Virus record (IMG/VR): IMGVR_UViG_2740892211_000014
Source of the DNA: a virus
Lineage: Duplodnaviria > Heunggongvirae > Uroviricota > Caudoviricetes
Reading direction: 5' to 3' (one strand)
DNA length: 12,554 nt
Every line of letters starts with the position of its first letter. Positions within the stretch are counted from its first letter, which is position 1. The notes beneath the pieces were generated by a model. The model was not told the DNA's origin and did no database searches. It saw nothing but the letters and a program-made list of their open reading frames with translations. The translations under genes were made by a program, and so were the position numbers. Positions 1 to 7,317 of this stretch are shown piece by piece.

Positions 1-291
1 TGCCGCTGCCTGAAGCTTCGCAACGTTAAGCTGATAAACATTCGACGCATTGCGGTTACCCTGGCGACGCGCCTTACGCGTTAACCAGCCTTCTGCTTCC
101 AGCCGTGCGATAGCCGTTCTGACGGTACTCATCCCCGCGCCAATCTGACGGGCAATGGTTTCAATTGATGGCCAGCACACACCTTCGTCATTACTGAAAT
201 CAGCCAGGCGGGCCATAATTGCCACGCTGGATAATTTCATGCCTGATGCAGCGCAACCATCCCATACATAGCCGGTTAATTTAGTGCTCAT
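1..291 (-). CDS. Phage replication-initiation-type winged-HTH protein, N-terminal 97 codons only (gene continues past window start)
   Basis: Reverse-strand ATG at 291-289; open in frame to position 1. Translation MSTKLTGYVWDGCAASGMKLSSVAIMARLADFSNDEGVCWPSIETIARQIGAGMSTVRTAIARLEAEGWLTRKARRQGNRNASNVYQLNV resembles the HTH N-domain of prophage replication proteins (recalled, not searched). Position after cro/cII matches lambda O. Confidence 0.55.
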   Translation of the reverse strand, partial: MSTKLTGYVWDGCAASGMKLSSVAIMARLADFSNDEGVCWPSIETIARQIGAGMSTVRTAIARLEAEGWLTRKARRQGNRNASNVYQLNVAKLQAAA

Positions 292-300
292 GACCGACCT

Positions 301-639
301 CTATTTCCCTGAATTTACGACGAAACTGTTCGAGCGGGCTGAAGCACTCATGCTCATAGCCTTCGCGGAGGTAGATAACACGTTGTGTTTCCGACTCCCA
401 ACGAATGACTCTGACGGGCACTCCGTAGTGATCTTTGAACCAGCGGTTAACTTGTCGCAAAGGACTGTCTCCTTCTGCCGGTTGAAATCACCCACAGCCC
501 ACTCTGCAAAGCTGTGGGTTACAATTTCCCTGTCACCTGGTACATTCACTGCATAGCAATATTCCACCTTCGCTTTTCCACCCGGAACAGGAAGCGCAAT
601 CAGTTGCGAGCGACGGTAGTGTGTTGTTAAACTGTTCAT
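301..639 (-). CDS. Hypothetical protein, possibly frameshifted (see findings)
   Basis: 112-codon ORF whose ATG (639-637) overlaps the stop of the upstream cII-like gene (ATGA coupling). The C-terminal half is serine-rich and looks non-protein-like, while another - strand frame (460-281) reads as better protein. Confidence 0.35.
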
Positions 640-1205
640 GCGTTAGTTTCTCCACAACCAGAAGCAATCGACGCCACGACGCCCGGAGCTGCACACTCGC
701 GGGCGTCATTACTTTCTGAAATGCAAAAAATTTTGTAGACAAGTGCTGCATGCTCCTGCAGCTTCGAAATTGAGAGATACAGCTCGTCGTTAATTGCTGT
801 CTTCTCATGCGGTTCCACTACACCGTCTTCGATTGCTGAACGAATCTGTTTTGAATAACTGCCGATCTGTTCAATGACTTCCAGCAGACGCTGGTTAATA
901 TCGGCGTTGTCCACATCCTCGACGTCAGGAAGAGACACAAAGACGCCATTTGCAGACTGCGCCACAGCATCAGCAATGAAGTGAGTGCCACCAGCACGCT
1001 GTAAAACCATTGCCCATCCCAGCGGGAAAATCTGATCGCCATCTGCACGAAGGCGGTTGAATAAAGCGTTTTCTGTTACATCGAGCCAGTCAGCCGCTTC
1101 AGCGTAACCACCCGGCAACGCCGCGATAGTTTTTCTGACAGCTTTCACGTACCACTCAGGCTGTTTTTCTATTTTCCAGTGATGCTTACCCACAATTAGC
1201 CTCAT
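636..1205 (-). CDS. Phage CII-type regulatory protein (phage 186 CII / CP76-like family)
   Basis: 189-aa ORF immediately downstream of the cro-like gene in the same operon. Spacing of conserved hydrophobic/Gly positions resembles phage 186 CII-family proteins (recalled). No obvious Shine-Dalgarno at the 1205 start, so the start is uncertain. Confidence 0.5.
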
Positions 1206-1236
1206 CGTTCTGTGGTTAAAAAATGAAAGTGTTCTG

Positions 1237-1437
1237 CTAATCTTTCGGATAGATATCCGGTCTTAAGTCAGATTTCGTAATTGCACCTGACGTGCATTGC
1301 TCAAGTTTTTTAGCCAGCACAAAACTGGCTTTTTTATAGCCATTGAAAACCAGCCGTAAGTAGCCAGGTGTTGAGCCAACTTTTCCGGCCAACTCGCCCT
1401 GCTGTTCTTTGGTTAAAGAGTCCCAATACGCTTTCAT
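1237..1437 (-). CDS. Cro-like small DNA-binding regulator (Cro/YdaS-type)
   Basis: Start set at the internal ATG (1437-1435), which has a GGAGG Shine-Dalgarno ~8 nt upstream on the - strand. The 66-aa product MKAYWDSLTKEQQGELAGKVGSTPGYLRLVFNGYKKASFVLAKKLEQCTSGAITKSDLRPDIYPKD is typical of small Cro-like proteins. Divergent from the cI-like gene. The longer 167-aa ORF in the track would run across the operator region. Confidence 0.65.
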   Translation of the reverse strand: MKAYWDSLTKEQQGELAGKVGSTPGYLRLVFNGYKKASFVLAKKLEQCTSGAITKSDLRPDIYPKD

Positions 1438-1443
1438 ACAATA

Positions 1444-1510
1444 TGTACCTCCGGTGTACATGTTACATGATTGAAATGAACCTTCAAGATACTTGTACCT
1501 TAACGGTACA
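1444..1510. promoter_or_regulatory. OR-like operator region between cro-like and cI-like genes
   Basis: Two 17-bp near-palindromes with the same half-sites: TGTACC-TCCGG-TGTACA (1444-1460) and TGTACC-TTAAC-GGTACA (1494-1510, extending to a perfect 8-bp-arm palindrome 1492-1512). A related site lies in the downstream promoter at 2249-2265. Confidence 0.5.
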
Positions 1511-1527
1511 AGGGTTTTAATTTCGTT

Positions 1528-2202
1528 ATGAAAACAATCCATGACATCCGGCGGTCTAACGCCAGAAAACTGAGAGATGGTGTTGGCGGGAATTCTTCCT
1601 TTGCCACTATGATTGATCGCGAGCCAACCCAGACCAGCAGGTTTATGGGAGATGGTGCTACTAAAAATATCGGTGACAGCATGGCACGACACATCGAAAA
1701 ATGTTTCGACCTGCCTGTCGGATGGCTCGATCAAGAACACCAGACAACGAACATCACAAAAAAACCTGATGTTTCAATCACTAATAAACAAATCACATTA
1801 GTCCCTGTCATATCATGGGTACAGGCCGGAGCATGGAAAGAAGTTGGATATTCTGAGGTTGATTTGAGCACAGCAGAAACGTATCCCTGCCCTGTACCCT
1901 GTGGGGAAATGACTTATATCTTGCGGGTGATAGGTGATTCAATGATTGATGAGTACCGCCCGGGAGACATGATTTTTGTCGATCCTGAAGTACCTGCCTG
2001 CCACGGTGACGACGTTATTGCATTGATGCACGATACAGGTGAAACCACCTTCAAAAGGTTGATAGAAGATGGGACACAGCGTTATCTCAAAGCGTTAAAC
2101 CCAAACTGGCCTGAGCCTTACATTAAGATCAACGGTAATTGCTCTATAATTGGTACAGTGATTTTCTCAGGAAAACCAAGAAGATACAAAATCAAAGCCT
2201 AA
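1528..2202 (+). CDS. CI-type phage repressor with C-terminal S24 (LexA-like) autopeptidase domain
   Basis: 224 aa. C-terminal region contains VISWVQAGAW and RVIGDSM ... TFKRL, the Ser/Lys dyad context typical of S24 repressors. N-terminal region resembles the phage CI-repressor HTH domain. Divergent from the cro-like gene across the operator region. Confidence 0.8.
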   Translation: MKTIHDIRRSNARKLRDGVGGNSSFATMIDREPTQTSRFMGDGATKNIGDSMARHIEKCFDLPVGWLDQEHQTTNITKKPDVSITNKQITLVPVISWVQAGAWKEVGYSEVDLSTAETYPCPVPCGEMTYILRVIGDSMIDEYRPGDMIFVDPEVPACHGDDVIALMHDTGETTFKRLIEDGTQRYLKALNPNWPEPYIKINGNCSIIGTVIFSGKPRRYKIKA

Positions 2203-2214
2203 TCAATGTTTATG

Positions 2215-2237
2215 AACCTGCTTCGGCAGGTTTTTTT
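2215..2237 (+). terminator. Rho-independent terminator after the cI-like gene
   Basis: AACCTGC-TTCG-GCAGGTT stem-loop followed by T7 (2231-2237), 13 nt after the cI stop codon. Confidence 0.7.
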
Positions 2238-2241
2238 ATAC

Positions 2242-2269
2242 TTGACAATGTACCTTTGAGATACATAAT
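2242..2269 (+). promoter_or_regulatory. pL-like sigma70 promoter with embedded operator
   Basis: TTGACA (2242-2247), 16-nt spacer, CATAAT (2264-2269). The spacer and -10 overlap TGTACC-TTTGA-GATACA (2249-2265), matching the OR half-site consensus. Points toward the + strand early-left genes. Confidence 0.55.
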
Positions 2270-2395
2270 GAACCCAAGCGAAACAACGAACAGGCAGGAC
2301 GCCCACGAAGTAGCCGCCTGGGGCATATGAAGTCCAGGATGATTCGTTGAGTCATGTTGTGCCACTAGGCACTCATGTTAAAGCAGGTGTATGAA

Positions 2396-2671
2396 ATGAA
2401 AGTCCAGATTTTAAACAATAACTGTGAAGTCGTTTGGTCATACGACATAGCCGCCCCTGTAGATCAGAGCGGCGATAGCTGGACCAATGAGAAACATCAG
2501 ATTATGGCTGGAGTTGTGTTCTCTTTACGCCGTGCTTTGGAACAGGCTGAAGTATTTCCATCAGACCCTGAATGGAAATGGCCTTTTTCTATTTGCCCAA
2601 ATTCGGAGAACACATTTCAGAAAATTGGTCAGAAAGTCGCACTCGAAGAGCATCAGCCAACTGTTTCCTGA
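2396..2671 (+). CDS. Hypothetical small protein, first ORF downstream of the pL-like promoter
   Basis: ATG at 2396 preceded by AGGTG (2385-2389) at 6-nt spacing; an in-frame ATG at 2375 lacks a Shine-Dalgarno. 91 aa, no recognisable family. Its 3' end overlaps the convergent ORF 2589-2834 by 83 nt, so the true stop or the reality of one partner is uncertain. Confidence 0.4.
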   Translation: MKVQILNNNCEVVWSYDIAAPVDQSGDSWTNEKHQIMAGVVFSLRRALEQAEVFPSDPEWKWPFSICPNSENTFQKIGQKVALEEHQPTVS

Positions 2672-2834
2672 TTTTTTCAGGTAACTCGTCGGCATCGCAG
2701 AAACAACAACGCTCGATCATGTTGAAAGCCGATTCGTAGAACTGTTTCTGCTGAGTGTCGCTGAGACAGGAAAAGAGCGACGTTACGATGATTTTATTAA
2801 TTGCATTATCAAGTTCTTTTTCATCAAAAGTCAT
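2589..2834 (-). CDS. Hypothetical 81-aa protein, antisense to the early-left operon
   Basis: ATG (2834-2832) preceded by AAGGAA (2846-2841) at 6-nt spacing. Translation MTFDEKELDNAINKIIVTSLFSCLSDTQQKQFYESAFNMIERCCFCDADELPEKIRKQLADALRVRLSDQFSEMCSPNLGK is protein-like; no family recognised. Confidence 0.45.
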   Translation of the reverse strand: MTFDEKELDNAINKIIVTSLFSCLSDTQQKQFYESAFNMIERCCFCDADELPEKIRKQLADALRVRLSDQFSEMCSPNLGK

Positions 2835-3074
2835 TTGATTTTCCTTTTATGTATACGGGCTTAAAAGGATACCACCGAGCCTGAAGTGGTGAAAAGACAG
2901 GCACATAACAGCTAAGTATTTTCAACCAAAGAGAATCCTTAGCGTTGTGGTGAATGCGGCTCAGCGCACGCGGGTTAAGGTTGAGGCTGACAGTCGACCT
3001 TCTGTGGATACCCACCCGTCTGGTGTGCAACCTTCGCCAGGCACCGGGAGGCACCCGGCACCACAACTTTATGC

Positions 3075-3134
3075 TGTGTGTAGTCCTGGCGGTACCAGTT
3101 TGTACCCTTGCTTCCGGCTGGTACCGCTCTTTTT
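3075..3134 (+). ncRNA. Candidate DicF-like prophage sRNA ending in an intrinsic terminator
   Basis: Perfect 10-bp stem GCGGTACCAG (3089-3098) / CTGGTACCGC (3118-3127) followed by TCTTTTT. TGGCGGTACCAGTTTGTACCC resembles the 3' half of E. coli DicF (recalled as TGGCGGTATCAGTTTTACTCC ... CCGCC-TTTTT). Lies in an ORF-free stretch downstream of the immunity region, as dicF does in Qin. 5' end undefined. Confidence 0.3.
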
Positions 3135-3135
3135 A

Positions 3136-3222
3136 CAAAACAGAGAAGAGCATCACCGGACGACGGGCTCATAACCCAATCCATCCGGGCGGCGGTCACC
3201 GCAGGTGTTCTTCTCTGTTTTG
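3136..3222. repeat. 14-bp perfect inverted repeat flanking a 59-bp GC-rich spacer
   Basis: CAAAACAGAGAAGA (3136-3149) and TCTTCTCTGTTTTG (3209-3222) are exact reverse complements. Starts immediately after the terminator T-run. Spacer contains further short GC stems (CCGGA...CCGGG, CACCGC). Confidence 0.6.
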
Positions 3223-3347
3223 TGGAGAAACTAACCGCCCCTGCGGGGGCATCTATTGAAACGTAATTGCTTAATAATCGCCGGATGGCGAGGGCTTCCT
3301 TTTCCCAAAATTCAGCGCAGTGCAGCGCATATAAAGTGGAGAACGAA

Positions 3348-3884
3348 ATGTCATTTATTAAAACTTTTTCCGGGAAGCATTTTTATTATGACAAGATAAA
3401 TAAAGACGACATCGTTATTAACGATATCGCGGTTTCCCTTTCAAATATCTGTCGCTTTGCTGGTCATCTTTCACACTTCTACAGCGTCGCCCAACATGCG
3501 GTGCTTTGCAGCCAGCTGGTACCGCAGGAGTTTGCTTTTGAAGCGTTAATGCATGATGCAACAGAAGCGTATTGCCAGGACATCCCCGCACCACTGAAAC
3601 GCCTTCTTCCTGACTATAAACGGATGGAAGAAAAAATAGACGCCGTAATCCGTGAGAAATACGGGTTACCCCCGGTTATGAGTACACCCGTGAAATATGC
3701 CGATCTCATCATGCTGGCAACCGAACGCCGCGATCTCGGGCTTGATGATGGCTCTTTCTGGCCTGTGCTGGAAGGTATCCCGGCAACAGAGATATTCAAC
3801 GTGATTCCACTGGCTCCAGGCCATGCCTACGGGATGTTTATGGAACGCTTTAACGAATTATCGGAGTTACACAAATGCGCATGA
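3348..3884 (+). CDS. HD-domain phosphohydrolase (YfbR-like 5'-deoxynucleotidase family)
   Basis: ATG 3348 with GGAGA ~9 nt upstream. 178 aa with the HD signature (H in VAQHAVL, HD in ALMHDATEAY, followed by D in CQDIPAPLK), similar to small prophage HD hydrolases. The upstream 27 codons of the longer ORF are taken as non-coding. Confidence 0.65.
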   Translation: MSFIKTFSGKHFYYDKINKDDIVINDIAVSLSNICRFAGHLSHFYSVAQHAVLCSQLVPQEFAFEALMHDATEAYCQDIPAPLKRLLPDYKRMEEKIDAVIREKYGLPPVMSTPVKYADLIMLATERRDLGLDDGSFWPVLEGIPATEIFNVIPLAPGHAYGMFMERFNELSELHKCA

Positions 3885-4237
3885 ATGTTTTCGAAATGGA
3901 AGGGTTTCTGCGCGGGAAATGTGTACCGCGAGATCTGAAAGTGAATGAAACGGATGCTGAATACCTGGTGCGTAAATTTGATGCGCTTGAAGCTAAATGT
4001 GCAGCACTGGAAAACAAAGTAATACCAGTGTCAGCTGAACTGCCGCCAGCAAATGAAAGTGTTCTGTTATTTGATGCTAACGGAGAAGGCTGGCTGATTG
4101 GCTGGCGTTCTCTCTGGTACACATGGGGGCAAAAAGAAACCGGAGAATGGCAGTGGACATTTCAAGTCGGGGACCTTGAAAACGTCAATATTACTCACTG
4201 GGCAGTAATACCGAAAGCACCGGAGACTAAGAAATGA
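3875..4237 (+). CDS. DUF551-family phage protein
   Basis: 120 aa; start overlaps the upstream gene's end. C-terminal ELPPANESVLLFDANGEGWLIGW ... ITHWAVIPKAPE matches the DUF551 pattern (LPxxxxxVL ... THWxPxPxxP) as recalled. Confidence 0.55.
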   Translation: MRMNVFEMEGFLRGKCVPRDLKVNETDAEYLVRKFDALEAKCAALENKVIPVSAELPPANESVLLFDANGEGWLIGWRSLWYTWGQKETGEWQWTFQVGDLENVNITHWAVIPKAPETKK

Positions 4238-4449
4238 GCGTGATAAAAACTCATACAGGAATTGTTATCACCCGAGACGGTGAAAAGCGGATGAAATTAC
4301 ATTCCACTGAAACGTCCTGGGTTGCCGAACGTTGTGAATCCTACGACAAAAAGACTGGTTACCGTTGGGGTGCACCTAACATGCGTCGCCGTCTGCTACT
4401 GGACAGCATCAGGCCAATAAAACAGGTAGCAACCAGGGAACAAAATTAA
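4234..4449 (+). CDS. Hypothetical small phage protein (71 aa)
   Basis: ATGA start/stop overlap with the upstream gene (translational coupling); same strand and operon as xis/int. No family recognised. Confidence 0.45.
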   Translation: MSVIKTHTGIVITRDGEKRMKLHSTETSWVAERCESYDKKTGYRWGAPNMRRRLLLDSIRPIKQVATREQN

Positions 4450-4508
4450 TTATCAGGACTGGAATTTGATATTACTGCCCGTGTGCAGCGGGCTAAGTGG
4501 AGAAACAT

Positions 4509-4715
4509 ATGCTGAACCTCGATTGTGTTCCAATCTCAACTTATTGCAAAGAAACTGGCGAAACTCCTGAAGCAATAAACAAACGTGTACAGCGCGGTGT
4601 TTGGCGTGAAGGTGTTCAGGTTTTAAAGGTTGAAGGCGTTAAGGAGAGGTGGATTGATCTTAGTGAGGTTGCAAAATGGGCCAGACAAAACTGCTCAAAC
4701 TACCGCGCGGCGTAA
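4509..4715 (+). CDS. xis: Excisionase-like DNA-binding protein
   Basis: ATG 4509 with GTGGAG upstream at 6-nt spacing. 68 aa, MLNLDCVPISTYCKETGETPEAINKRVQRGVWREGVQVLKVEGVKERWIDLSEVAKWA has excisionase-like winged-helix features. 3' end overlaps the int start by 40 nt, as in lambda xis-int. Confidence 0.6.
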   Translation: MLNLDCVPISTYCKETGETPEAINKRVQRGVWREGVQVLKVEGVKERWIDLSEVAKWARQNCSNYRAA

Positions 4716-5848
4716 CAATCAGGAAACACCGCCAGGGCGAAACGATCAATATAACTTTCACCTACAAAGGAGTTAAATGTCGTGAGCCTCTTTCCAATCT
4801 GGAAGTAACACCAAAGAACATTAAATACGCTGAGCGCACACTCGGCGAAATTCATAATAAGATCGAAAGGGGAACATTCATTTATGCGGAATATTTTCCC
4901 CGTTCTGCTCGTTTGAAAATTTTTGGTAATGCTGCTGCAGGCAAAACGGTAAAAATGTACCTGGACGAATACCTTGAAATCTGCGAAACGAGGAAACTTT
5001 CACCATCCACGATCGGTGGTTATAAAAAATGCCGTAGTGCGTTAGCCTCACTTCACATTTGCCCTGCAAGTGAATTAACACCAGCAACCCTGAAAGCGTG
5101 GATTCAAAGCCAGAAAACGACCTTAAAAACCATTCGCAACCAGTTATCTTTCCTGCGGTCAGCACTTGATGAAGCCGTGACCGATGGGGTACTTCAAATT
5201 AACCCCGTATCGTTAGTAACAGCTTCGCGCTACCAAAGTGATAAGTCAGAAGCAGAAAGCAGCTACGTAGTTGATCCGCTATCACCAGCAGAAGTTGATG
5301 CATTACTAGCAGCAGCCGGAAACAAACAATGGGAAAATCTGTTCCGGTTCGCTATACATACAGGCCTGCGTAGTTCTGAATTATGTGCCCTTCGATGGCG
5401 TGATATCGACTTTGTTGGAAAAACTGCCCATGTCCAGAGCGCAAGTGTTGTCGGTGTTATCAAAGGGACAAAGACAAAAGCAGGTACTCGGAAAGTTGAA
5501 CTGACAGAAGAGGCAATGTTGGCGCTGATAAATCAGAAGCCATTTACATTCATGAAGGATGCTACTGTCTTTGAAGATCCAAAGACCAATAAGCCTTGGG
5601 CAAGTGCTGATGCAATTAGGAAAAAAGCATGGGTGCCAACATTGCGAAAAGCAGGTATTCGTTACAGAAACCCATATCAAACCAGGCATACATTCGCCAC
5701 CAGCCATATCAGCCGAGGAGCAAACCTGTTTTGGCTTGCAGCTCAAATGGGGCATAAAGGGCCGGAGATGCTTTTCAGGCACTATGGTTCGTATCTTAAA
5801 GAGTATGATAACTTTACATCGATAAATCATTTGCATAATCATAATTAA
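4676..5848 (+). CDS. int: Phage tyrosine integrase (lambda-Int type with arm-binding N-domain)
   Basis: 390 aa. N-terminal KLPRGVTIRKHRQGETINITFTYKGVKCRE is arm-binding-like. C-terminal domain has the conserved R (FAIHTGLRSSE), the H-x-x-R context (RHTFATSH) and tyrosine in LFRHYGSY. Adjacent to the att repeat. Confidence 0.9.
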   Translation: MGQTKLLKLPRGVTIRKHRQGETINITFTYKGVKCREPLSNLEVTPKNIKYAERTLGEIHNKIERGTFIYAEYFPRSARLKIFGNAAAGKTVKMYLDEYLEICETRKLSPSTIGGYKKCRSALASLHICPASELTPATLKAWIQSQKTTLKTIRNQLSFLRSALDEAVTDGVLQINPVSLVTASRYQSDKSEAESSYVVDPLSPAEVDALLAAAGNKQWENLFRFAIHTGLRSSELCALRWRDIDFVGKTAHVQSASVVGVIKGTKTKAGTRKVELTEEAMLALINQKPFTFMKDATVFEDPKTNKPWASADAIRKKAWVPTLRKAGIRYRNPYQTRHTFATSHISRGANLFWLAAQMGHKGPEMLFRHYGSYLKEYDNFTSINHLHNHN

Positions 5849-5856
5849 TATTTAAT

Positions 5857-5884
5857 AATCCCCGCATTTTTAAAATCGGGGATT
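5857..5884 (+). promoter_or_regulatory. Hairpin between int and the cargo ORF: possible int 3' retroregulatory/terminator structure and/or RBS occluder
   Basis: AATCCCCGCATTTT / AAAATCGGGGATT form a ~13-bp stem with one bulged C and a 1-nt loop. The right arm contains GGGGA (5878-5882), the only Shine-Dalgarno-like element 7 nt upstream of the TTG start at 5890. The downstream U-tract is weak (ATTTAAAG). Confidence 0.4.
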
Positions 5885-5889
5885 TAAAG

Positions 5890-6669
5890 TTGATTACAAT
5901 TACATTCGACAAACTAATCACCTACATATCTTCAGTTGGTACTTTCATTTCAGCAATTGCTGCATTATATGCAATATGGTTAACGATATTTCAAAGAAGG
6001 CTCTCTTATAAACCCAATTTAGTGATAGACACTTTAAATATCAAGATGAATGTTAACGATTTCAACGGTTTTCATGTTGATATCTTACAAGCCCCTACGC
6101 TTCCACAAACAAAATTTTCAAACATAGGATTGGGGGCGGCAATTTCACTTAGATATCATTGGGATTTTAATTATAAAAAAAACATAAATCTATATTTAGA
6201 GTTGTTTTCGAAAAAATTCAAAAAAGAAGATAAATCTTTTACAACCGACTCCCAGTATGGAATATTCAAAATAATAAAAGAAAGAAAAGTATATATGTAC
6301 AATACTTTATCGACACCTTACGATATTGATTTTTCGTTACCATATAGTATAGATAAGAAGTCAAAAAACATTTTTGTACCAACCGCGGCAATTGATATTC
6401 TATTGAATATAGCATATCTTTCACATAGACTTAAATTAGTCGGTTCTTCATCATTCACTGGTCCAAAATTAATTATTGAATATCAAGATATAGAGGGTAA
6501 AACTAAAAAAGTCACTTGGCAAACAAAATTGGAACGTGGAGTGGCACGTTTCAGTGGTGATAATATGGAGGCAGATTTTGCACTACGGTTTACACCTGTA
6601 CCAGAGAAATGGACTACAAAAGGTCTAGAGAAGATACGCAAAAGCGCCGCAAACGCCATGTTCAGATAA
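5890..6669 (+). CDS. Hypothetical membrane-anchored protein, AT-rich cargo (moron) gene between int and att
   Basis: 259-codon ORF with TTG start; first in-frame ATG is codon 53. N-terminal hydrophobic segment ITYISSVGTFISAIAALYAIWLTIF predicts one TM helix before a ~220-aa Lys/Asn/Ile-rich domain. Markedly AT-richer than all flanking genes. No family recognised. Confidence 0.55.
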   Translation: MITITFDKLITYISSVGTFISAIAALYAIWLTIFQRRLSYKPNLVIDTLNIKMNVNDFNGFHVDILQAPTLPQTKFSNIGLGAAISLRYHWDFNYKKNINLYLELFSKKFKKEDKSFTTDSQYGIFKIIKERKVYMYNTLSTPYDIDFSLPYSIDKKSKNIFVPTAAIDILLNIAYLSHRLKLVGSSSFTGPKLIIEYQDIEGKTKKVTWQTKLERGVARFSGDNMEADFALRFTPVPEKWTTKGLEKIRKSAANAMFR

Positions 6670-6698
6670 ATATATAATTAAAACAACAGGTTAATATT

Positions 6699-6734
6699 TT
6701 TCAGACACGGGTTCAACTCCCGCCAGCTCCACCA
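6699..6734 (+). repeat. Diverged copy of the 3' end of the tmRNA gene ssrA (attachment-site repeat; not a full gene)
   Basis: TTTCAGACACGGGTTCAACTCCCGCCAGCTCCACCA matches the recalled ssrA 3' end (TTTCGGACGCGGGTTCAACTCCCGCCAGCTCCACCA) with 2 mismatches at the 5' side. No upstream tmRNA body is present in the window. Confidence 0.6.
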
Positions 6735-6861
6735 ATCATGATTGGACGGTGTAAGGACTACACCAACAAAAACAGGAAGTTATAAGTCTCAGCAGAACAC
6801 CGACCAGACGGTGAGGAGACAAAAAAGGATACGCAACGGAGTCGCGACTCCCTATGACATT

Positions 6862-6888
6862 AAAGCCCGCATCAGCGGGCTTTTTTAT
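6862..6888 (+). terminator. Rho-independent terminator, probably the native terminator downstream of the ancestral ssrA 3' end
   Basis: AAAGCCCGC-ATCA-GCGGGCTTT stem-loop followed by TTTTATT, ~130 nt downstream of the ssrA 3' fragment. Confidence 0.65.
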
Positions 6889-7317
6889 TGGTCCTGACCC
6901 GCCCTGAATAGAATTCATCCAATTACAGTCCAGACATATACAGTATCCCTCAGCTCAGTATCAGCTTCTCGACAAATGGTCACTGTTATTTACCCGTTGC
7001 CAGAAAGAGAATAATTTGCCCCCATAGCCAGCCTTCCCGGAATCTGTATATTCATTAATATTGTTATCGATTCCATCAAGTAACATAGGTTGGATGCGAT
7101 TGATCTTACTCACATTAGTCGACACGGAACTCAGTAAGTTGAACTCTGAAAAAGCAGTTTAAATAGCATTTAAACAAATGCCACCAGTTCGAAAAAGAGT
7201 ATAAGCACACTTAATATATTGTTTTAATTATTCATTTCCTTTCAACCCAATTCTTATCCCTCACATTATTTGTTATTAATTTGTTGTTTTTGATCACAAC
7301 AAGAAAACAATATGTAA

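Follow-up and report, generated by a model that had tools for sequence, protein, structure and literature searches.

The window analyzed here is the whole 12,554-nucleotide (nt) stretch of IMG/VR virus record IMGVR_UViG_2740892211_000014. It derives from an E. coli chromosome, with a prophage on the left and chromosomal metabolism genes on the right. Between the prophage integrase gene (int) and the attachment (att) core lies a single open reading frame (ORF), referred to here as X, that encodes a 259-amino-acid (aa) protein with one predicted transmembrane (TM) helix. X is probably a prophage defense gene. The basis for this reading is the content of the hotspot it occupies, its retention after phage loss, its fast evolution and exchange between phages, its defense neighbors, and a machine-learning flag on a near-identical protein. 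In silico, X is a self-contained module with a predicted promoter in the 3' end of int, followed by a hairpin and by the ORF, which overlaps the attP arm sites. The gene and its two boundaries are as follows.

4676 to 5848, + strand: tyrosine integrase of the ssrA-specific lambdoid type, 390 aa (Pfam Arm-DNA-bind_2 5e-23, Phage_integrase 4e-16).

5890 to 6669, + strand: X ORF, TTG start, 259 aa, member of phrog_7259.

6710 to 6734, + strand: att core GGTTCAACTCCCGCCAGCTCCACCA, the 25-nt 3' end of ssrA (the tmRNA gene), with one exact match in the window and 0 expected by chance.

A first-pass annotation, made from the letters of the window, had described X as an AT-rich cargo gene for a membrane-anchored protein, and most of its description holds. 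The 259-aa ORF with a TTG start is present at its reported position on the + strand. X is more AT-rich than all other genes in the window, with a GC content of 0.323 and a GC content at third codon positions (GC3) of 0.273, against 0.43 to 0.58 for the other prophage genes and 0.54 to 0.59 for the chromosomal genes. It forms the most AT-rich 780 nt of the 12.5-kb window, and no other segment of that length equals it. The product is rich in Ile, Lys, Leu, and Asn and has a pI of 9.7. The single N-terminal TM helix corresponds to the one hydrophobic segment found by hydropathy, at residues ~9-34 (Kyte-Doolittle maximum 1.99). The remaining ~220 aa, which the annotation could not assign to any family, have no match in Pfam, NCBIfam, or PADLOC.

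The placement between int and the att core holds, with one caveat on the repeat. X begins 41 nt after the int stop and ends 40 nt before the att core GGTTCAACTCCCGCCAGCTCCACCA. The core occurs once; no second copy was found within the window, and the partner repeat lies outside it. Scans of the window for tRNA, tmRNA, and Rfam families called no gene. The window Int shares 86% identity with its counterpart in temperate coliphage LLS and 92% with that in Citrobacter phage phiNP. LLS has been grouped with ST64B and phiNP among the lambdoid phages, and its integration into the 3' end of ssrA was deduced (PMC12315714). The same att core lies 3' of X in LLS, where it is annotated as attP/tmRNA pseudogene, and in other loci.

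The slot between int and the att core was surveyed in 80 IMG/VR phage loci with an integrase 91-100% identical to the window Int. Across these loci, 80 to 2852 nt separate the int stop from the ssrA core, and ORF clustering distinguishes at least 12 cargo architectures. The slot is thus variable in related ssrA-integrated phages, a check that the first-pass annotation had proposed. X occupies 19 slots, followed by cargo like PD-Lambda-5 (15), AbiL (6), DarT1-NADAR (4), and CmdTAC (2). Cargo of unknown type fills 28 slots, one slot is empty, and five are truncated. Known systems account for 27 slots versus 19 for X. Every cargo class is AT-rich, with a GC content of 0.32-0.43 compared with 0.44 for int. 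The empty slot (locus L067) is 80 nt long and is found with the same int and arm sites.

The PD-Lambda-5-like cargo consists of a 595-aa AAA ATPase and a methyltransferase, with a match to PD-Lambda-5_B at 5e-124. The AbiL cargo carries AbiLi (4e-101) with AbiLii (3e-29), and the DarT cargo carries DarT (2e-13) with a NADAR antitoxin (Pfam NADAR-DarT1, 1.6e-89). The CmdTAC cargo matches PD-T4-9_C at 8e-35; PD-T4-9 is CmdTAC (PMC9519451). Judged by these matches, the identifiable slot cargo other than X appears to be uniformly defensive. No virulence or envelope-modifying genes were found among the identifiable alternative slot cargoes. With a family hidden Markov model (HMM), eight divergent subfamilies of X were found as single-gene cargo, along with one frameshifted copy. 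In locus L018 (4214-4992) the window allele of X is frameshifted into a 98-aa and a 155-aa ORF, representing either a pseudogene or a sequencing error.

The uncharacterized AT-rich slot cargoes are themselves defense-system candidates. Those in L037, L055, L028, L071, L027, and related loci include a 302-aa DUF4760 multi-TM protein and a 272-aa multi-TM protein with small ORFs. Others are a trio composed of a TM protein, a DUF4325/STAS-like protein, and a 307-aa protein; a ParA-like ATPase with two unknown proteins; and a TPR-like pair of 129 aa and 271 aa. The characterized C. rodentium phage phiNP (L097, 4671-6458) has a 595-aa ATPase directly after int that is labeled only "AAA family ATPase". 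Its position and size equal those of the ATPase in the PD-Lambda-5-like cargo.

The slot resembles the P2 and P4 defense hotspots in its conserved flanks, its variable AT-rich content, its mixture of known and unknown systems, and its module exchange (PMC9122126; PMC9519451). It differs from them in phage group and in location, and it is bounded inside the 3' end of int and at the attP arm sites. The literature searches found no description of an int-to-attP hotspot in ssrA-integrating lambdoid phages.

The left boundary of the cargo can be placed from the int tail. The last ~10 int codons (5815-5848 in the window) co-vary with the cargo type, for example HLHNHN* with X and KKITI* with the PD-Lambda-5-like cargo. 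Since the tail changes with the cargo, the cassette has its recombination boundary inside int, just after the conserved YLKEYD motif. The right boundary is marked by a repeat within the ORF.

6634 to 6650, + strand: tandem arm-type-like attP repeats ATACGC-AAAAG-CGCCGC, within the X ORF and encoding ..IRKSAA..

Of the 14 loci scanned, which include several cargo classes, 11 have the sequence MCGCAAAAG at position -74 exactly, counted from the core; it belongs to a tandem nnnCGC-AAAAG-nnnCGC. A near-variant, ACGTAAAAG, is found at -74 in L092, and more divergent versions are found in LLS and in an AbiL-type locus. In the L014-L093 loci the repeats span 58-80 nt before the ssrA core. From their position, their repetition, and the Arm-DNA-bind domain in Int, these repeats are probably the arm-type Int sites of this phage group, and they appear to be unannotated anywhere. 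In X-type loci they encode the conserved C-terminal IRKSY(A). The conservation of the C-terminal IRKSYADF...NKNR was considered as a purely protein constraint and rejected; it is at least partly a DNA constraint imposed by the attP arm sites and the P arm.

The X family was defined with a word-indexed search and an exhaustive HMMER search (E <= 1e-3; clusters at 50% identity). X matches phrog_7259, which has no annotated function, at E = 2.1e-85, with residues 7-259 aligned to profile positions 6-270 of 277. The word-indexed search gave 21 clusters, and those named by organism are all from Enterobacteriaceae (Escherichia, Enterobacter, Cedecea, Klebsiella, and Citrobacter). The exhaustive search gave 125 representative clusters, nearly all 200-325 aa in length and mostly matched over much or all of that length. 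Homologues have a GC content of 0.30-0.36 irrespective of host. The exact X allele is present in 50 of 5426 complete E. coli genomes (~1%) and is chromosomal every time. A profile scan of genome contigs for X gave no confirmed relative. LLS (PQ299149) is the only isolated phage with a family member, gp31, which is 27% identical to X. Gp31 is likewise a phrog_7259 member and has the same architecture and place as X (int, 41 nt that include a hairpin, the gene, and ssrA attP); the LLS paper assigns it no function (PMC12315714). The literature searches found no description of phrog_7259.

The ratio of nonsynonymous to synonymous substitution rates (dN/dS) was calculated by the Nei-Gojobori method. 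For X it is 0.21-0.35 overall, 0.04-0.20 over codons 1-43, and 0.22-0.36 over the rest, compared with 0.02-0.04 for int; gene-wide values below 1 are compatible with diversifying selection at single sites. By these ratios X is a coding gene under purifying selection and is about ten times less constrained than int. The synonymous divergence (dS) of X is 0.25-0.62 between the window and L083 or L085, and that of the adjacent int is 1.7-2.2. Because the dS of X is far below that of its neighbor, the X module has been exchanged between phages. Separate acquisition of the cargo, proposed in the first-pass annotation from composition, is demonstrated by this difference (0.25 for X against ~2 for int in the comparison with L085) and by the at least 12 architectures that follow nearly the same Int.

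Between loci, Int is 84-92% identical and X is 25-43% identical. Taking these identities as a simple sign of recent shared ancestry was rejected, as the synonymous sites of int are saturated. The contrast is explained by the ~10-fold difference in constraint together with module exchange. Klebsiella, several metagenomic contigs, and additional E. coli prophages share the arrangement of int (391 aa), a 37-41-nt gap, X, and the ssrA core.

X is also found where the prophage has decayed. In Enterobacter hormaechei, int is reduced to a 3' fragment, and the X ORF, promoter, and hairpin are all intact. This allele is present in several assemblies with different islands inserted upstream. In Cedecea neteri, a fragment of int precedes an intact X ORF; the promoter match is lost and the hairpin is degenerate. 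An AbiTii gene lies upstream of the Cedecea X and a SymE toxin gene lies downstream. That X is kept after phage loss argues for a benefit to the host.

Two observations concern the E. hormaechei ssrA locus. The mobile elements upstream differ by strain (integrases, MobA relaxase, HEPN), which indicates a composite island. Just upstream of the int 3' fragment in L007-L010 (6791-7609) is a 272-aa protein with N- and C-terminal hydrophobic segments and no Pfam match. This membrane protein was considered as a paralogue of X and rejected (profile E = 0.02, score 0.1).

A protein nearly identical to X has been flagged by DefensePredictor. WP_127490476.1 differs from the window X only by I125M and is the RefSeq protein at this locus in NZ_CP018991. 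Table S10 of that work lists it as "Predicted novel defense gene" with a mean log-odds of 8.59 and a cut-off of 4 (PMC13092281). It is among the 1,041 "predicted, uncharacterized" defense clusters from 3,000 E. coli genomes (DeWeirdt, Mahoney and Laub, Science 2026, PMC13092281). The HHblits result given for this accession is DRT1b only, at 6% coverage (PMC13092281). The accession is absent from the validated-system table of DefensePredictor, a check made for this one accession. The entry in these tables is a prediction only and gives no anatomy, hotspot, or mechanism for X.

The region between int and X contains the following potential regulatory features.

5831 to 5836, + strand: predicted -35 hexamer TTGCAT of the X promoter, within the int coding sequence; also found by a generic promoter scan.

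5854 to 5859, + strand: predicted -10 hexamer AATAAT, shortly after the int stop; the base of the hairpin 5' arm is formed by its final three nucleotides.

5857 to 5884, + strand: conserved hairpin in the gap between int and X (-12.6 kcal/mol, z = -2.8).

X is predicted to have its own sigma-70-like promoter, which straddles the int stop codon. The TTG of the -35 hexamer is a Leu codon of the int tail and is conserved only in X-type loci (in hexamers such as TTGCAT, TTGAAT, and TTGATA). The spacer is exactly 17 nt at every X-type locus. Of 20 X-type junctions, 19 carry the pattern TTGNNN-17 nt-[AG]ATAA[TC], located at -58 to -62 relative to the start codon; its background is 4e-5 per nt. The single junction without it is a degenerate Cedecea remnant. 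The pattern is absent from all 12 of the non-X junctions examined.

The hairpin contains a Shine-Dalgarno (SD)-like GGGGA in its 3' arm, at 5878-5882, 7 nt before the TTG. The first-pass annotation had recognized this element within a strong hairpin and had understated it, in that the hairpin covaries and is coupled to a conserved promoter. The consensus structure from 19 distinct junctions has 11 pairs. Compensatory double changes are seen at 10 of these, and the outer eight are disrupted in no more than 2 of the 19 sequences. A purine-rich SD-like element is always present in the 3' arm of X-type junctions, 6-9 nt before the start codon. Two other roles for the hairpin were considered and rejected. 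It is not a classical intrinsic terminator, as the T-tract is weak, and it is not an analogue of lambda sib, as it sits on the int side of attP and remains linked to int in the prophage.

A transcript made in the lysogen would start ~6-9 nt past the -10 hexamer (~5865-5868), inside the 5' arm of the hairpin. Without the 5' arm, a transcript from the X promoter could not form the hairpin and its SD would be free. A read-through mRNA from int would carry the whole hairpin, so that its SD would be masked and transcription probably attenuated. X would then be made constitutively at a low level from its TTG start, uncoupled from int. Because only read-through transcripts from int hold the full hairpin, X would be expressed in the lysogen and insulated from int.

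The protein can be divided into two parts.

5914 to 6018, + strand: codons 9-43, the TM helix (SSxGTFISAIAALYAIWLTIF) and juxtamembrane QRRLSYKP, from hydropathy and conservation.

6019 to 6666, + strand: codons 44-259, a predicted cytoplasmic domain with an immunoglobulin (Ig)-like beta-sandwich core, two inserted helices, and a C-terminal helix.

The TM and juxtamembrane segment is the best-conserved part of X. In the close alignment (A1) the TM helix and the juxtamembrane sequence have mean conservation values of 0.87 and 0.83, versus ~0.5 elsewhere, and 20 of the 30 invariant positions fall in residues 8-42. Among more distant members (67-97 sequences), Q35, R36, P42, N78, G80, G82, A84, W91, P164, and D200 are invariant or nearly so. 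In alignment A2, Q35 is invariant, and R36 and P42 are conserved at 90% or more. The invariant residues look like turn or packing positions rather than a catalytic set. Some GenBank records contain a 215-aa version of X with its start placed beyond the TM helix (cluster member P0142, 50 contigs). The conservation of the TM region across the family indicates that the 259-aa form with the TTG start is the real X.

The 15 residues after the TM helix contain a mean of 3.75 Lys or Arg versus 0.46 before it, with more after than before in 67 of 67 homologues. As the positive-inside rule is followed throughout, the predicted topology is N-out/C-in: the short N-terminal tail would be periplasmic, and a cytoplasmic domain of ~215 aa would follow the one TM helix. 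The AlphaFold2 (AF2) model of full-length X has a predicted local distance difference test (pLDDT) score of 81. A model of the domain alone, built with 97 sequences, has a pLDDT of 95.5 and a predicted TM-score (pTM) of 0.88. As modeled, the domain would have an Ig-like beta-sandwich at its core, to which two helices and a C-terminal helix are added, with no close solved relative and no recognizable enzyme fold. A Foldseek search of BFVD with the model returned only uncharacterized phage proteins with TM-scores below 0.3, and a sequence profile search of the PDB returned no match.

With regard to mechanism, we tentatively take X to be a prophage moron that blocks the entry of incoming phage genomes by binding at the inner membrane, a reading held at a little short of even. 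It is favored over abortive infection because the domain has no enzyme signature and would be tethered where phage DNA and ejection proteins emerge. X would act through binding rather than catalysis at the inner face of the inner membrane. The conserved TM and juxtamembrane segment would dock to X itself or to a conserved host membrane partner. The fast-evolving domain would recognize an incoming phage protein (tape-measure protein, ejection protein, or injection conduit) and block genome entry, resulting in superinfection exclusion (Sie).

The closest likeness in topology is to SNIPE, a membrane-bound nuclease with a periplasmic N-terminus, one TM segment, and a cytoplasmic remainder, as established with PhoA-LacZ-alpha fusions (Saxton et al., Nature 2026, PMC13190303). 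SNIPE acts at the inner membrane during genome injection through contacts with ManYZ and the tape measure, and its binding surfaces are variable (PMC13190303). The N-out single-pass topology with a cytoplasmic body is shared with X, for which it is predicted. SNIPE contains DUF4041 and a GIY-YIG nuclease; X has neither and has no nuclease fold. Because it has no nuclease, X acting at entry would block rather than cut.

P22 SieA, HK97 gp15, lactococcal Sie2009, and TP-J34 Ltp are small membrane-associated prophage proteins that are expressed in the lysogen, are often adjacent to int, and block DNA entry by related phages. X is similar to these classical Sie proteins in its predicted membrane association. 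It differs in that it shows no sequence or profile similarity to them in the Pfam, PADLOC, and PHROG searches, is larger, and has a domain predicted to be cytoplasmic.

Several points weigh against a defense role or against this mechanism. The first-pass annotation had proposed defense or superinfection exclusion, and the support for that proposal comes by association, from the four defense cargoes of the slot, the AbiTii and SymE neighbors, and the DefensePredictor flag. Homology does not support it: searches with Pfam, NCBIfam, PHROG, and PADLOC showed no homology of X to any known defense or exclusion protein, Sie families included, and the PADLOC-DB v2.0.0 profiles gave 0 families at E <= 1. 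The hotspot argument is one of guilt by association, and 28 of the 80 slots hold uncharacterized cargo. DefensePredictor uses neighboring-gene context, including integrases, so its flag partly repeats the same argument. The promoter, the transcription start, and the masking of the SD are read from sequence. Ig-like sandwiches are found more typically outside the cytoplasm, and the cytoplasmic placement of the X domain is a prediction only. The conservation of the TM segment could partly reflect recombination flanks rather than function. Finally, nothing separates an entry block from abortive infection. The pattern of a conserved TM segment and a variable domain is compatible with both.

In an abortive-infection mechanism, the variable domain would sense a phage protein, and the TM helix would oligomerize and depolarize or permeabilize the inner membrane, so that the infected cell would die before producing progeny. 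We regard this as fairly unlikely, with several features in its favor. The TM and juxtamembrane segment is the best-conserved part and the domain falls to 20-40% identity, which is the pattern of a conserved effector joined to a variable sensor. The helix has many small residues (S-A-x-A-A-x-x-A), and the invariant Q35 comes after it, along with R36, conserved at 90% or more. The TTG start and the masked SD suggest low expression, as for toxic proteins. The Cedecea homologue adjoins AbiTii and SymE. AbiL, DarT1-NADAR, and CmdTAC, which are abortive-infection or toxin-type systems, occupy the same slot. However, X would be a weak pore former, having one TM helix and neither an amphipathic nor a multi-helix effector domain, and the slot contains no partner antitoxin or regulator. 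No SLATT or other TM effector family was matched among the members, one of which reached only E = 0.09. More broadly, Pfam searches of 67 family members gave scattered single matches, none of them significant.

More unlikely still is a role outside defense, with X as a lysogenic-conversion or host-fitness factor such as a membrane-tethered adaptor that alters envelope stress, transport, or colonization traits. Morons between int and att also encode functions other than defense, for example O-antigen modification in P22/Sf6-type phages, and X has no defense homology. Its retention after prophage decay in E. hormaechei points to a host benefit without specifying the kind. However, all identifiable alternative cargoes of the slot are defense systems, with no virulence or envelope-modifying gene among them. 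At the protein level the X family also changes ~10 times as fast as int, and it passes between phages, as is typical of conflict genes. X has no enzyme or glycosyltransferase fold.

It is very improbable that X is an accessory factor for integration or excision, or an ORF kept only through its overlap with the attP arm sites: its last ~25 codons do overlap the arm repeats at -74, which encode the most conserved C-terminal motif, IRKSY(A), but X is dispensable for recombination because sister phages with the same int and arm sites lack it (the slot of L067 being empty), purifying selection extends over the whole ORF, far from the arm sites, and a membrane anchor is unexpected in a recombination factor.

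The remaining features of the window lie to the left of X and to the right of the att core.

1 to 5848: early-left/immunity end of a lambdoid prophage, with a CII-like gene, cro/cI, yfdP/Q/R-type genes, xis, and int.

6862 to 6890, + strand: intrinsic terminator AAAGCCCGC-ATCA-GCGGGCTTT followed by a T-run, the first one 3' of X, from a terminator scan.

From 7417 on: chromosomal genes glaH(csiD)-lhgO-gabD-gabT.

The early-left operon contains a YfdR-like HD-domain 5'-deoxynucleotidase at 3267-3884 (weak Pfam match, 3.7e-05; RefSeq label yfdR). The statement in the first-pass annotation that X is the only gene that is neither core prophage machinery nor chromosomal metabolism does not hold, as this operon also has the yfdP/Q/R-type genes and several hypothetical genes.

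We infer that the terminator at 6862-6890 serves X. It lies within a 186-nt stretch (6708-6892, made up of the core and the next ~160 nt on the right) with 86% identity to the core and P' arm of LLS. An arm-like ATACGCAA motif is located at ~6828, ~118 nt 3' of the core, and is similarly placed in LLS. Because of this identity, which includes the arm-like motif and the terminator, the junction looks like P-core-P' (attP-like) rather than P-core-chromosome. It may be either the attL arm from an earlier LLS-type prophage or a phage-borne copy of the native downstream/terminator region of ssrA. Similar sequence is found 3' of ssrA in Cedecea and E. hormaechei.

Prophage hotspots, membrane exclusion proteins, and a computational flag on a near-identical protein are already known. 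New are a family with no characterized relative, the specific regulatory architecture, and the compact hotspot, for which the literature searches gave no earlier description. It is doubtful, although possible, that X represents a new class of single-protein, non-enzymatic immune factor, in which a tethered hypervariable Ig-like receptor domain is combined with a previously undescribed int-attP defense hotspot, a promoter in int, a hairpin switch, and interleaving with attP.

Independent of the role of X, the region between int and the ssrA attP core is a compact and easily mined hotspot in lambdoid phages of the LLS/phiNP type. Known systems make up roughly a third of its occupants and unknown operons roughly another third; the latter can be taken as a short list of further candidates. 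The promoter in int and the hairpin together would be an example of how a moron is insulated from the transcription of its own phage. If X does protect against phage, it would add a defense family with no recognizable enzyme and a fold with no close relative in the PDB. Its predicted recognition domain at the cytoplasmic face would then bear on how phage genomes may be stopped at entry without nucleases.

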